A stretch of 64,000 nucleotides of DNA from sequence record OR544955; one strand, given 5' to 3'. The DNA comes from Escherichia phage vB_EcoP_EP32B. A program made the translations under genes and the position numbers. The notes under the pieces were generated by a model. The model did not search any database and was not told the origin of the DNA. It saw only the letters and a program-made list of their open reading frames with translations. This document shows positions 46,738-50,956 of the stretch, piece after piece. Every line of letters starts with the position of its first letter. Position 1 is the stretch's first letter.

Positions 46738-47226
46738 ATGAATATATTTGAAATGCTTCGTAATGACGAAGGTCTTAGACTGACTTTATACAAAGACACT
46801 GAAGGCTTTTGGACGATTGGCATAGGCCACTTGGTAACAAAGAACCCGTCTTTAGCCGTAGCTAAAGCTGAACTTGACAGAATGATCGGTCGTAAATGCA
46901 ACGGTACAATTACCCTTGATGAGGCTGAAAAGCTATTTAATGAAGACGTCGATAAAGCCGTTCGCGGAATCTTGGGTAATGCTAAACTTAAACCGGTATA
47001 TGATTCTTTAGATGCAGTTCGTCGATGTGCATTGGTCAATATGGTCTTCCAAATGGGTGTAGCAGGCGTTGCTGGTTTTACTAATTCTCTTCGTATGCTT
47101 CAACAGAAGCGTTGGGATGAAGCGGCAGTAAATCTAGCCCAATCTAAATGGTACCGTCAGACACCTAATCGAGCGAAACGCGTAATCTCAACATTTAAAA
47201 CAGGAACTTGGAAAGCGTATATATGA
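46738..47226 (+). CDS. e: Endolysin (T4 lysozyme, gene e)
   Basis: MNIFEMLR...EGLRL.LYKDTEG..TIGIGHL; 162 aa. Confidence 0.9.
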
Positions 47227-47504
47227 AAACATATAGTGAATTTTTATCAGAATCTATTCTTAACGAAGCTACTGACACATTTGCAACTAAGCTAGGTGCA
47301 GCTTTGGTTGAAGCTGAAAGTCTATTAGCACGTATTTCTGAACTTGCCAGTAAGATAGATACTCGCAAATTTGAGCGCACCAGTGATATCGTTAAGCTTG
47401 AAGCCTTGTTACGTATGTGCGATAAACCGGAAGAAATCGCTAAGAACGGCTCGCTGATGAAACAACGTCTTGAAAAATATATTTCAGGCGCTTCAGAAAA
47501 ATAG
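47223..47504 (+). CDS. Internal protein (IPII-like) with capsid targeting sequence
   Basis: 93 aa beginning [11 protein letters not shown], the CTS pattern of T4 internal proteins. Confidence 0.6.
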
Positions 47505-47505
47505 T

Positions 47506-47559
47506 GTTTACTTCCTCCAAGGACTTTGATACTATACATTCATCAACTACTTGGAGGAA
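47506..47559 (+). promoter_or_regulatory. PeSL-like early promoter with stem-loop
   Basis: GTTTAC 47506-47511; TTGATACTAT; 9 bp inverted repeat TTCCTCCAA/TTGGAGGAA. Confidence 0.55.
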
Positions 47560-47562
47560 ATT

Positions 47563-47976
47563 ATGACTCGTATCAATTTAACACTTGTTTCTGAACTGAC
47601 TGACCAACATCTTATGGCTGAGTATCGTGAATTACCACGCGTATTTGGTGCAGTCCGTAAACATGTTCAAAACGGTAAACGTGTAAAGGATTTTAAAATC
47701 TCTCCAACATTTATCTTAGGCACAGGTCACGTAACATTCTTTTACGACAAACTTGAATTTTTACGTTTACGACAAATCGAGCTAATCGCCGAATGCTTGA
47801 AACGTGGTTTCAAAATCAAGGACACGACTGTCCAGGATATTTCCGACATCCCTGCAGAATTTCGTAATAATTATGTCCCATCCGAAGCGTCCATTGCGAT
47901 AAGTCAAGCACGCTTAGATGAAAAAATTGCTCAACGTCCGACTTGGTACAAATACTATGGTAAATCAATTTACTAA
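47563..47976 (+). CDS. denV: Endonuclease V (pyrimidine dimer DNA glycosylase DenV)
   Basis: 137 aa; [12 protein letters not shown]...TWYKYYGK recalled as T4 endo V. Confidence 0.9.
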
Positions 47977-47984
47977 GGAACAAA

Positions 47985-48056
47985 ATGAAAACTCCAACCT
48001 GTAATAATGTCGAGCCCAAGTGCGGTAATGGGTTGCCACGGAATGGCCCAACATAA
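47985..48056 (+). CDS. Possible 23 aa Cys-containing micropeptide
   Basis: ATG 47985 after AAGGAA SD; MKTPTCNNVEPKCGNGLPRNGPT. Confidence 0.25.
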   Translation: MKTPTCNNVEPKCGNGLPRNGPT

Positions 48057-48068
48057 AAGAGAAACTAA

Positions 48069-48590
48069 ATGAGAACATTTTTAACTGGACCTTATCTATC
48101 CCTGATGAATGCTTTTACACACCATTCTGATGCTAGAGTAGAAGAAATTTGTAAGAACGGTTATGTCCCACCATTTGAAGACGTACTCAAGCAGTACTGT
48201 ACACTTCGTTTAGACGGTGGCAGACAATCCGGTAAATCAATTGCTGTGACTAACTTTGCTGCTAATTGGCTGTATGATGGCGGAACAGTTATTGTTCTTT
48301 CTAATACTTCAGCTTATGCTAAAATTTCTGCTGGTAACATTGAAAAAGAATTTTCTCGATATTCTAGCGATGATATTCGATTCCGTTTATTTACTGATTC
48401 TGTTCGTAGTTTTATTGGCAATGAAGGTTCTAAATTCCGTGGATTAACGCTTTCTCGTATTCTGTATATAATTGACGAGCCTATTAAAGCTCCTGATATG
48501 GATAAGATTTACAATGTCCATATTAAAACAGTTACTGTTGCAAAAGCAAATATTGCATCGGCGGTAATGCTCGTCCTCAATTTTTTGTGA
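48069..48590 (+). CDS. Hypothetical protein with P-loop-like motif
   Basis: 173 aa; GGRQSGKS. Confidence 0.5.
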   Translation: MRTFLTGPYLSLMNAFTHHSDARVEEICKNGYVPPFEDVLKQYCTLRLDGGRQSGKSIAVTNFAANWLYDGGTVIVLSNTSAYAKISAGNIEKEFSRYSSDDIRFRLFTDSVRSFIGNEGSKFRGLTLSRILYIIDEPIKAPDMDKIYNVHIKTVTVAKANIASAVMLVLNFL

Positions 48591-48600
48591 TTGGAATGCA

Positions 48601-48909
48601 ATGATGACCACTATTGAAGTTTTTGAATATTGTTATAACAGTCCAGTATGCAATAAAAGGGCCCTTGTAGAAAATTACGAGATTTACCATTTTAAACCTA
48701 AACGATATCGTTTGACTAAAGGTCCGTTCGCAGGGCAGCAGGTTCTTTGTACTGCTCCTAATGCACGACTGATGACTAGTATTCCACATTTCAAAATGGA
48801 ATTTATTGATGGGCCATTTAAGGGATTAACCACTCAAAGTTTAATGGCGTTTAGTTCTGACCCATTTTTGATTAAAGAAAAAACTTGGATAAATTTATTT
48901 TCTAATTGA
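48601..48909 (+). CDS. Hypothetical protein
   Basis: 102 aa ORF. Confidence 0.5.
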   Translation: MMTTIEVFEYCYNSPVCNKRALVENYEIYHFKPKRYRLTKGPFAGQQVLCTAPNARLMTSIPHFKMEFIDGPFKGLTTQSLMAFSSDPFLIKEKTWINLFSN

Positions 48910-48915
48910 GGTTAT

Positions 48916-49278
48916 ATGAAAGCATATCAAATTCTTGAAGGTGCACATAAAGGCACTATTTATTTTGAAGACGGTACTCAAGCCCGGATTATTGTCTCTA
49001 AGACTTTTAAAGAAGACGCTATTGTAGACCCGGAAATTTTCTACGGTTTGAATGCCCGTGAAATTGAAATTGAACATCAACCTAAAGTTAAAATTGAAGG
49101 TGGTCAACACCTGAACGTTAACGTTCTGCGTCGCGAAACTCTGGAAGATGCAGTTAAGCATCCAGAAAAATATCCGCAGCTGACCATCCGTGTATCCGGT
49201 TATGCAGTTCGCTTTAACTCTCTAACTCCGGAACAGCAGCGCGACGTTATCGCTCGTACCTTTACTGAGAGTCTATAA
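48916..49278 (+). CDS. Autonomous glycyl radical cofactor (GrcA/YfiD-like; T4 Y06I-type)
   Basis: 120 aa; C-terminal ...[29 protein letters not shown] glycyl radical motif nearly identical to recalled E. coli GrcA. Confidence 0.75.
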
Positions 49279-49502
49279 TGGCTAAATTGATTATAGAAGG
49301 GTCTGAAGATGTTTTAAAATGTTTTGCCGCCTGGTTTAGTTGCTCAGGCGAGCAATCATTCATTGAAGCATTTAGAATGGGTGATATTACTGGAAACTAT
49401 CCGACAACTGATATCACTGTACGTGGATATGGTATTAATGAGCCTATCCAATTGGTCGAATATGACCTTGCCACCGATGAGGAAATTCCTTATGTCGATT
49501 GA
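49278..49502 (+). CDS. Hypothetical protein
   Basis: 74 aa ORF. Confidence 0.45.
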
Positions 49503-49890
49503 AGACATCAAAGGCTATAAGCCGCATACCGACGATAAAATCGGTAAAGTGAACGCTATTAAAGATGCAGAAGTTCGAGGAAAAATACTAATGGCTCAAA
49601 TCCTATCAGGCTTTGGAACTCATTATGAAGCATCTAGACGCATAACTGAAAGCAATCCTTTTGGCCTTGTTCCGAAGCACAAGAAAATTCAAAGCCTTGA
49701 TGACTTTGAGAACCGCCTATGGGCCCTCTTTAATGAGTACAAGGCATATCTGAAAGAAGACGCTGACGATTGTCTTGAAGAAGATGAGATTGCGTATTAC
49801 GAACAACGCCTTGAACAGCTCAAGAACTTCCATCAGGTTCGTGACGAAGTATCTAAAGCAGTTAAAAAGTTAATTCCTTTCAAAGAGTAG
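49492..49890 (+). CDS. Hypothetical protein
   Basis: 132 aa from ATG 49492 overlapping upstream stop. Confidence 0.45.
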
Positions 49891-49940
49891 TTTACTTCTC
49901 CTCTAGTTGTGTTACTATAGACATGTCAACTAGAGGAGAA
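49890..49940 (+). promoter_or_regulatory. PeSL-like early promoter with 14 bp perfect stem
   Basis: GTTTAC 49890-49895; TGTTACTAT in loop; inverted repeat TTCTCCTCTAGTTG (49896-49909) / CAACTAGAGGAGAA (49927-49940), which includes the regB SD. Confidence 0.6.
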
Positions 49941-49946
49941 ATCAAA

Positions 49947-50405
49947 ATGACTATCAATTCAGACGTTTTTATCCGCCGTAATAAACTCCGTCGAATCTTT
50001 GAAACGGAGTTCCGCAAAATAAATGCCGGTATAAAAGATGCTGCAAAGTCTCTTGGACTACCAGGCTTTCATATCAAGTATTCTCAACATCTCTTAGATC
50101 GTGCCATCCAGAGAGAAATAGATGAGAATTACGTTTTTGAATTATTTCATAAAGTAAAAAATCATGTTAAAGAAGTTGCAGAATTTTTATCAATGCCGGC
50201 ACGTCCAGATGTTGATGAAGATTTTGTCGAAGGTGTCGAGTATCGTCCAGGCCGTTTAGAAATAACTGATGGAAATCTTTGGTTAGGACTTACAGTCTGT
50301 CGCGAAAATCCAGCATTCAAAATGAAGACTCTTCAATGCAGAATGGCTATTATTAACAGTAAACGACTACCAGGAAAAGCTTCTAAAGCAGTGATTAAAA
50401 TCTAG
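49947..50405 (+). CDS. regB: RegB endoribonuclease
   Basis: 152 aa; MTINSDVFIRRNKLRR...LQCRMAIINSKRLPGKASKAVIKI recalled as T4 RegB. Confidence 0.85.
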   Translation: MTINSDVFIRRNKLRRIFETEFRKINAGIKDAAKSLGLPGFHIKYSQHLLDRAIQREIDENYVFELFHKVKNHVKEVAEFLSMPARPDVDEDFVEGVEYRPGRLEITDGNLWLGLTVCRENPAFKMKTLQCRMAIINSKRLPGKASKAVIKI

Positions 50406-50413
50406 AGGTAAAC

Positions 50414-50956
50414 ATGAGAAAAGCACTACTCGCTGGTCTATTTGCTCTTTCATTATCAGCACATAGCTCCGAGCATACTTTTAGTAATGTCCAACTCGAT
50501 AACTTGAATTATGCTTATCAGTTTGGGGAACAGTTTTCTAAGGACGGAAAATTTAAAACGCATGAAAATATGCATAAGAAAGGACTTGGATACATAATGG
50601 CCGCAATACTATGGCAGGAATCATCTGCCGGTATTAATCTTAAAGATAAGAAAGGTCACCATGCGTATGGAATGTTCCAAAATTATCTACCAACAATGAG
50701 GGTAAGAATTAACCAGCTTGGTTATAATATGACTGATGCCCAAATTAAGAAAATGCTATCTAAGCGGTCTAATTCAGCCAGATGGGCTTATATCGAATTT
50801 TCTTATTGGTTAAATATACATAACGGGGATATAAGAAAAGCTATATCCTCATATAATGCGGGATGGAAGACAAGTGCTGGAAGTAAATATGCTTCTGAAG
50901 TCCTAGAAAAGGCTAATTACCTTAAATCAAATAAACTACTGGAAATAAAAGAATGA
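50414..50956 (+). CDS. Secreted lytic transglycosylase-like protein (SLT motifs)
   Basis: 180 aa; N-terminal signal peptide; QESSAG and SYNAG motifs. Confidence 0.55.
   Translation: MRKALLAGLFALSLSAHSSEHTFSNVQLDNLNYAYQFGEQFSKDGKFKTHENMHKKGLGYIMAAILWQESSAGINLKDKKGHHAYGMFQNYLPTMRVRINQLGYNMTDAQIKKMLSKRSNSARWAYIEFSYWLNIHNGDIRKAISSYNAGWKTSAGSKYASEVLEKANYLKSNKLLEIKE

Follow-up and report, generated by a model that had tools for sequence, protein, structure and literature searches.

The glycyl-radical domain of the T4-like phage gene vs.6 probably stems from grcA of the Escherichia host

The small stand-alone protein GrcA (YfiD) of Escherichia coli and its counterpart Y06I, encoded by vs.6 of phage T4, are known as repair factors of pyruvate formate-lyase (PFL): according to PMC8683613, which cites Wagner et al. 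2001, both are activated by PFL activase and restore PFL that has been cleaved by oxygen. We analysed a gene of this kind in a stretch of 64,000 nucleotides (nt) from Escherichia phage vB_EcoP_EP32B (sequence record OR544955), the whole of which is called the window. The gene is an open reading frame (ORF) of 120 amino acids (aa) at 48916..49278 on the plus strand, with the ATG at 48916 and the TAA at 49276-49278 in the ORF list. Gene and biochemical role are already known, and the annotation itself adds nothing new; our subject is the origin of the 3' part, where Escherichia grcA very probably overwrote about 175 base pairs (bp) of a recombinant phage GrcA, a replacement repeated independently in Klebsiella phages. 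The initial annotation of the window had named the T4 homologue Y06I as a repair factor of oxygen-damaged PFL, and this holds: the ORF is the vs.6/Y06I orthologue, with 94% aa identity to T4 Vs.6 (both 120 aa) and 93.1% nt identity over 363/363 positions. T4 Vs.6 has the same length, neighbours, gene order, mosaic and 5' junction; the 5' half of the window ORF departs from it by 19-20 substitutions that are characteristic of Mosigvirus, and the closest nt match of the window ORF is the Mosigvirus 'moha' (99.2%).

E. coli GrcA (TIGR04365; structure 6OWR) and the phage protein are both small stand-alone proteins with the loop RVSGYAV; their last 60 residues are identical and about 175 nt nearly so. 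The phage protein has 7 residues fewer, the identity in its N-terminal 59 aa is about 33% (over 39 aa), and the full proteins share 65% of their residues. The E. coli gene lies at the locus ung-grcA, the phage gene in an early-region cluster of a lytic phage. The C-terminal glycyl-radical domain of the PFL enzymes PflB and TdcE has the same fold and motif, and the phage protein aligns to PFL residues 696-759. Neither pflB nor tdcE is the donor of the host-like DNA: both were considered and rejected, with 75-78% DNA identity to the tract versus 97-100% for grcA.

A further point of comparison are the genes psbA and psbD of cyanophages, in which intragenic recombination between host and phage is said to have been described by Zeidner et al. 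in 2005 and by Sullivan et al. in 2006. In psbA and psbD, likewise auxiliary metabolic genes of T4-like lytic phages, host-allele DNA has reportedly replaced segments of the phage copy, so that similarity is patchy and the phage alleles follow the genus of the host. The marks of such mosaics recur in vs.6: an abrupt change of similarity, identity at synonymous sites, an identifiable donor and independent events per host. Unlike psbA and psbD, however, the tract in vs.6 is a single, sharply bounded block that coincides with one structural domain and matches alleles of living hosts with an identity of up to 100%; the phages that carry it contain hydroxymethylcytosine in their DNA and break down the chromosome of the host; and in sister genera of phages two different host genera served as donors for one and the same gene.

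The mosaic was located by aligning the ORF with E. coli grcA (L001:447-830) and applying the maximum chi-square method with 2,000 permutations. A breakpoint was found at gene nt 178|179, that is 49093|49094 of the window, with a chi-square of 108 against a permutation maximum of 21.9 (P<0.0005). Left of it 86/175 aligned columns are identical to E. coli grcA (49.1%), right of it 180/185 up to the stop codon at 49278 (97.3%). The 5' part (48916..49093, plus strand, nt 1-178, aa 1-59) is genus-specific, rich in adenine and thymine with a guanine-plus-cytosine (GC) fraction of 0.36, and remotely GrcA-like; it is native to the phage. The adjoining tract (49094..49268, plus strand, nt 179-353, aa 61-118) is near-verbatim E. 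coli grcA, encodes the glycyl-radical domain and is most probably host-derived. Its 3' limit was taken from the table of variable sites: gene nt 354 is a G in 15 of 16 T-even phages and an A in E. coli, and nt 360 is a fixed difference between the genera Mosigvirus and Tequatrovirus, so the tract proper most likely covers nt 179-353, and the last 10 nt (49269..49278, plus strand; GAG AGT CTA TAA from the third base) are probably again phage-native. The initial annotation had placed host-like DNA at about 49080-49280, underlying a C-terminal match of some 55 residues. The segment is real, yet its start lay about 14 nt too far to the left, and the protein match is longer, since all 60 residues from aa 61 to 120 are identical to E. 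coli GrcA. The annotation also proposed acquisition from the host. For the 3' part this agrees with our results, whereas for the gene as a whole it does not: in the simplest reading of the alignment this would be a partial conversion, in which an old phage homologue kept its 5' half and had the radical-domain part replaced, and not the capture of a host gene.

Comparison with 5,426 complete E. coli genomes gave the same picture. The tract of the window matched with a best identity of 98.9%; an absence of nucleotide similarity to host grcA, which according to the initial annotation would have spoken against acquisition, was thus not observed. When the whole 64-kb window was compared in three pieces by megablast, 49094-49286 was the sole match to these genomes. 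T4 vs.6 shows the same mosaic with the same 5' junction, and its tract is closer still: 176/176 bases (100.0%) match grcA of many E. coli strains, and the identity is at least 99% in 5,156 of the 5,426 genomes. Within nt 179-354 T4 departs from the E. coli allele at one site, the variant being itself an E. coli allele, versus three sites in the window (A249, A309 and G354).

Base composition carried less weight. The segment had been described as GC-richer than its surroundings, with the E. coli-style codons CTG, CGT and CGC. The tract does have a GC fraction of 0.492, compared with 0.38 in the window as a whole and 0.356 in the 5' half of the gene, and ranks among the highest 0.7% of 59-codon windows in the ORFs of the window; the shift is modest, and GC at third codon positions (GC3, 0.407) reaches only the top 7%. 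Host-like codons are CTG, which makes up 4/5 leucine codons in the tract versus 10% in the phage, and CGC; CGT, in contrast, is also the arginine codon that the phage itself favours, and the E. coli high-expression codons CGT, GGT, GTT, GAA and ACT are in general also preferred by this phage. With the codon table of the phage as reference and the amino acid sequence taken as given, the codon typicality of the tract was z=-1.0 (16th percentile). The windowed comparison thus confirmed a shift in total GC and was not conclusive by itself. Composition was set aside as a proof of transfer because GC3 and codon typicality are not outliers, and direct DNA comparison was used. For compositional detection of horizontal gene transfer this is a caution: a clear transfer is barely visible in codon statistics.

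High DNA identity might also arise at the protein level, if grcA had been captured in ancient times and the 3' half stayed host-like through extreme purifying selection combined with common codon preferences. The domain is nearly invariant in protein sequence across all phages and hosts, the preferred codons of E. coli are also those of the phage, and the codon typicality of the tract is unremarkable, all of which would suit such an explanation. GrcA-like genes were found in about 1,500 phage records, and these allow a comparison at synonymous sites. Phage lineages that encode the same 60 C-terminal residues have a DNA identity of 80-83% to E. coli and a synonymous divergence (dS) of 1.4-1.8 (L105 and L107: 83%, dS 1.8), and between E. 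coli and enterobacterial hosts with an identical protein there are 15-23 synonymous codon differences. Therefore selection on the protein does not account for the identity of the tract, in which the dS to E. coli is 0.07-0.12, the level found within Escherichia, and which in T4 matches E. coli in every base. By these synonymous-site comparisons an origin without recent transfer is already refuted, and we regard it as highly improbable. An RNA element or a terminator as the cause of the DNA conservation was rejected as well: an Rfam search of 47000-50500 gave no hit, and promoter- and terminator-like sites were at chance level.

Identity by itself gives no direction, and E. coli and K. pneumoniae could formally each have taken the 3' half of their grcA from T4-like phages. 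The host genes argue otherwise. The tract is 97-99% identical to E. coli, 95-99% to another Escherichia species, 89-92% to Citrobacter and 81-83% to Salmonella; T-even tracts are 98.7-99.4% identical to E. coli, and the nearest host outside Escherichia reaches at most 92%. The divergence of host grcA tracks the host phylogeny and is continuous across the position of the breakpoint: the dS to E. coli in the 3' and 5' parts is 0.42/0.50 in Citrobacter, 1.06/0.91 in Salmonella and 0.81/0.82 in a Klebsiella metagenome-assembled genome (MAG), so that the discontinuity belongs to the phage gene. In addition, grcA was present at the chromosomal ung-grcA locus in 5,426/5,426 E. coli genomes, and the tract is both GC-rich relative to the phage and rich in CTG. 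As the tract nests in Escherichia while host grcA runs without discontinuity through the breakpoint, the polarity is, on these comparisons, from host to phage, with the chromosomal grcA of an Escherichia host as the donor; to a transfer from phage to bacteria we assign next to no probability. Taken jointly, the identity of the gene and the host origin of its 3' tract are held with very high confidence.

A parallel case was found in the phages of Klebsiella. In the T4-like genus Jiaodavirus, which infects Klebsiella and Raoultella, the vs.6 orthologue has the same 5' junction as in the T-even phages, and between about nt 181 and 335 its identity is 95-98.7% to K. pneumoniae grcA and about 87% to E. 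coli. The Klebsiella reference was taken from a PLSDB record that is a K. pneumoniae chromosome mislabelled as a plasmid. Highest were phage KPV15 with 98.7% and phage 15882-6-5 with 98.1%; the next best host in the set reached at most 93%. The 3' junction at about nt 335 lies some 20 nt earlier than that of the T-even phages. Two residues that distinguish the E. coli from the Klebsiella domain follow the host: Jiaodavirus encodes the Klebsiella-type LLDAVEH, the E. coli phages the E. coli-type LEDAVKH. Among the phage records, 138 carry a Klebsiella tract with at least 90% identity (77 at 95-99%, 61 at 90-95%), and 646 an E. coli tract (628 at 95-99%, 18 at 90-95%). Tracts of Klebsiella type and of E. 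coli type at the same spot therefore call for at least two conversions, each from the phage's own host genus. In the Raoultella phage Ra_O-1 (L179), 5/8 differences from K. pneumoniae match the allele of a Raoultella MAG (rough P~0.005), which is suggestive only of a patchy re-conversion from a Raoultella-like host, the true donor species being unsampled. Klebsiella phages related to Slopekvirus also have the residues LLDAVEH, yet a DNA identity of only about 80%; either an old conversion or convergence may have led to this pattern. A third, Yersinia-derived case (L122, IMGVR_UViG_2706794630_000006, gene ending at 1797) was rejected. Its gene is 91% identical to grcA of Yersinia artesiana, encodes a full-length GrcA of bacterial type (MITGIQITKA...) and is no phage vs.6; this IMG/VR contig, although classed as viral, most likely represents bacterial DNA or the flank of a prophage.

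Some peculiarities of the records were noted along the way. In Klebsiella phage KPV15 (L181:225-586) vs.6 is annotated as two coding sequences, with a frameshift or a sequencing error in the 5' half and an intact tract; Escherichia phage OES_C-2 (L177:229-585) has an in-frame deletion of 6 nt in the 5' half of vs.6, again with an intact tract. PLSDB contains whole chromosomes or large pieces labelled as plasmids (L174 CP125156.1, L175 LR134122.1), e.g., a K. pneumoniae 'plasmid' of 5.37 Mb. The grcA of K. aerogenes NCTC10006 in the same database is frameshifted within a run of A, presumably through an error of sequencing.

How often the T-even phages themselves were converted is less clear. 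Divergence between the window and T4 was calculated by the Nei-Gojobori method with ten neighbouring genes as control. In these the dS was 0.59-2.2, with two genes saturated; single values are 1.43 in denV, 0.59 in vs.8, 1.03 in vs.7, 2.2 in vs.5, 1.9 in regB, 0.91 in vs.1 and 1.25 in a macro-domain gene. In the 5' half of vs.6 it was 0.40 and in the tract 0.14, and the tracts of window and T4 are each as close or closer to E. coli than to each other. A comparison of 16 phages (7 Mosigvirus and 9 Tequatrovirus) revealed a strong genus structure in the 5' half, with a mean of 4.5 differences within genera (range 0-10) and 18.7 between them (16-21); in the tract the values were 3.6 and 4.1. Genus-fixed differences number nine in nt 1-170, nt 171-359 are free of them, and a single one follows at nt 360. 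The part that lacks genus structure coincides with the block homologous to the host gene, and a C/T variant at nt 219 segregates in Mosigvirus, in Tequatrovirus and in E. coli. These patterns are suggestive of repeated host-to-phage conversion within the T-even phages, and we judge the chances of repeated or ongoing conversion to be even or slightly better.

Several observations weigh against it. None of the phages examined departs from the 5' junction at nt 178|179, nearly all of the T-even phages have G354, the first base after the tract, and a host-like 5' half was seen in no T-even phage examined. All three would likewise be compatible with a tract that entered one T-even ancestor or lineage in a single conversion from E. 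coli and then spread from phage to phage among Tequatrovirus and Mosigvirus, with no ongoing exchange with the host. The dS of the 5' half, which is also below that of the neighbouring genes, and a weak Mantel correlation (r=0.10, P=0.03) point the same way. An exchange between phages would, however, have no reason to end exactly at the limits of homology to the host, and the block of nt 171-359 has genus-fixed differences close to both of its ends, upstream at a distance of no more than 9 nt and downstream at nt 360. Moreover, crosses between T4 and RB69-type phages are reported to give no recombination (PMC6024577), the polymorphism at nt 219 is common to both phage genera and E. coli, and the independent Klebsiella-derived tract shows that the process recurs. 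A single conversion followed by spread among phages is hence a tentative alternative and in our view rather unlikely. Against repeated conversion stand also A249 and A309, which are private to the window and occurred in 0/5,426 E. coli genomes, so some of the divergence after transfer is ordinary mutation. Unconverted tracts, with 63-84% identity to any host, were present in Karamvirus (Enterobacter), Slopekvirus-like phages, Pseudotevenvirus, Krischvirus, T5-like phages, Aeromonas phages and jumbo phages, and these include E. coli-infecting phages (Krischvirus, a 76%-class and T5-like phages) at about 74-76%. A Salmonella-type tract was not found in Salmonella phages, three records in the 90-95% band being left out of this count; the best matches to Salmonella grcA that cover all or nearly all of the tract were E. 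coli-type T-even phages with 84%. Therefore conversion, where it occurs, has to be seen as rare and not as general.

Phage stocks are grown on E. coli, and lysates are contaminated by host DNA. Host reads assembled into phage genomes, or a conversion that took place only during laboratory propagation on E. coli, might thus imitate the mosaic. The tract is, however, in frame and has phage sequence on both sides, and 646 independent phage records contain it, among them the classical sequences of T4 and RB69. It is of the E. coli type even in Tequatroviruses whose isolation host was Yersinia, and of the Klebsiella type in Klebsiella phages, and phages have private substitutions that occur in none of the E. 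coli genomes searched. We consider an artefact extremely improbable.

A recombination mechanism can be proposed from sequence patterns only, which is a further point against taking repeated conversion as settled. Recombination is required for the replication of T4. The T-even phages break down the chromosome of their host and have modified cytosines, and to our knowledge documented natural recombination from host to T4 is scarce. During infection, fragments of the host chromosome would occasionally recombine with the replicating phage genome, and about 175 bp (49094-49268) would be exchanged, in a gene conversion by homologous or homeologous recombination, for the corresponding DNA of chromosomal Escherichia grcA. 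Relatives without conversion show 75-83% identity to host grcA in the radical-domain region, where exact matches are 11-20 nt long, and the 5' half is about 49% identical; in converted phages the longest exact runs with host grcA extend over 70-137 nt. The exchange would be confined to the conserved domain, with the left junction set at the start of the EGGQHLN block, as we propose because only this part is similar enough to the host gene for strand exchange. Once converted, the tract is nearly identical to the host gene, which would make further conversions easier and could reset the tract to the alleles of the current host. In Klebsiella phages the same process would have run independently with K. 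pneumoniae grcA as donor. Selection may add to it, since the domain has to be recognised by host PflA and to fit host PFL. Whether vs.6 acts in this manner as a standing recombination target, at which lytic T-even and Jiaodavirus phages repeatedly copy the radical-domain part of their current host's grcA, we put at an even chance. If true, the phage would keep a spare part matched to the host even at synonymous sites, a concerted evolution of a virulent phage and a host gene.

The replaced part encodes the glycyl-radical domain. Pfam Gly_radical was detected at aa 60-101 (E=2e-18, 67 bits versus a cut-off of 22), and the closest solved structure is E. coli GrcA (PDB 6OWR, 2e-42), followed by the PFL C-terminus at residues 696-759 (3e-26). 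The glycyl radical site RVSGYAV named in the initial annotation is present in the translation at aa 92-98 (49189..49209, plus strand) and aligns to the radical domain of PFL and GrcA; the codon of the radical-bearing Gly95 is GGT at 49198-49200. The loop is of the PFL type and not of the NrdD type, and identical to that of E. coli GrcA. With 120 aa and a C-terminal glycyl-radical domain the protein has the form of the small stand-alone GrcA/YfiD family (TIGR04365, IPR011140). Its TIGR04365 score of 159.1 bits, over aa 18-120 of the protein and 23-126 of the profile, remains below the equivalog cut-off of 170, which counts against the assignment; E. coli GrcA scores 234. The shortfall arises because the N-terminal half is divergent: a BLASTP comparison of this half with GrcA gave a weak match with E=2e-5 (39 aa, 33% identity), and a likewise weak E=0.12 was obtained when only the N-terminal 59 aa were compared with TIGR04365. 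These values fit a remote homology of the N-terminal half to GrcA and are not a proof of it. By analogy with T4 Y06I, whose radical domain is identical, the protein encoded in the window would functionally be a GrcA despite the score below the cut-off.

Following the T4 case, the phage protein would be made during infection and host PflA would install the radical on Gly95. The activated protein could then dock into host PFL that was cleaved by oxygen at Gly734 and restore the production of acetyl-CoA and formate, which may keep the fermentative energy metabolism running for the phage under fluctuating oxygen. Separately, a grcA-like gene was observed in the Escherichia jumbo phage ph0011 (Asteriusvirus; L093:324-686) between nrdD and its activase gene nrdG; this arrangement hints at co-regulated phage glycyl-radical functions for infection at low oxygen.

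In the searchable literature we found no description of the mosaic at the DNA level or of the parallel Klebsiella case; an earlier mention is possible, as Wagner et al. 2001 is known to us only through citing papers. As a natural case of a virulent phage that overwrote part of its own gene with chromosomal DNA of the host, the gene is unusually clear-cut. If the exchange is recurrent, conversion, and not point mutation, may maintain the fit of auxiliary genes whose products dock into host machinery, the tract could be used as a molecular record of a phage's recent hosts, and it would offer a natural, quantifiable read-out of recombination from host to T4.

The surroundings of vs.6 are those of T4. 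Orthologues of denV, vs.8 and vs.7 were located upstream, and of vs.5, regB, vs.1 (SLT), vs and a macro-domain gene downstream; the order denV-vs.8-vs.7-vs.6-vs.5 ... regB-vs.1-vs is conserved with T4, and the position of vs.6 between vs.7 and vs.5 matches both T4 and moha. On protein identity and gene order the window is that of a T4-like phage and the ORF at 48916-49278 is the orthologue of T4 vs.6/Y06I. The vs.7 orthologue (48601..48909, plus strand) and the vs.5 orthologue (49278..49502, plus strand) flank the gene as the nearest divergence controls; a Pfam search with both was without hit. The stop codon of vs.6 overlaps the start of vs.5 (TAATG, as read from the window), and 4 nt before the vs.6 ATG lies a GAGG motif (48908..48911, plus strand) that overlaps the vs.7 stop and may function as a Shine-Dalgarno sequence. 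Opposite vs.6 an antisense ORF of 88 aa (48895-49161, minus strand) was treated as a probable chance by-product of the coding strand.

Three other observations concern the DNA around these genes. At about 47400-47980 denV lies directly upstream of vs.8, as in T4, whereas moha, its closest relative, has IpIII there and denV elsewhere; the window is therefore a mosaic of Mosigvirus-like and T4-like arrangements around denV/vs.8. An island at about 47990-48160, covering the denV/vs.8 intergenic region and the start of vs.8, is about 98% identical to T4, versus about 75-85% in the surrounding DNA. It contains a GC-rich intergenic stretch, CCAACCTGTAATAA.GTCGAGCCCAAG.GCGGTAATGGGT...GCCACGGAATGGCCCAA; no Rfam match was obtained for the island, and its predicted folding was no better than that of shuffled sequences (z=0.34). 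Finally, at about 49555-49930 (vs.4/vs.3) the window is 54-70% identical to moha and to two further phages (L094, L095), versus 91-100% in the adjacent bins, which looks like a gene cassette swapped between otherwise near-identical phages.

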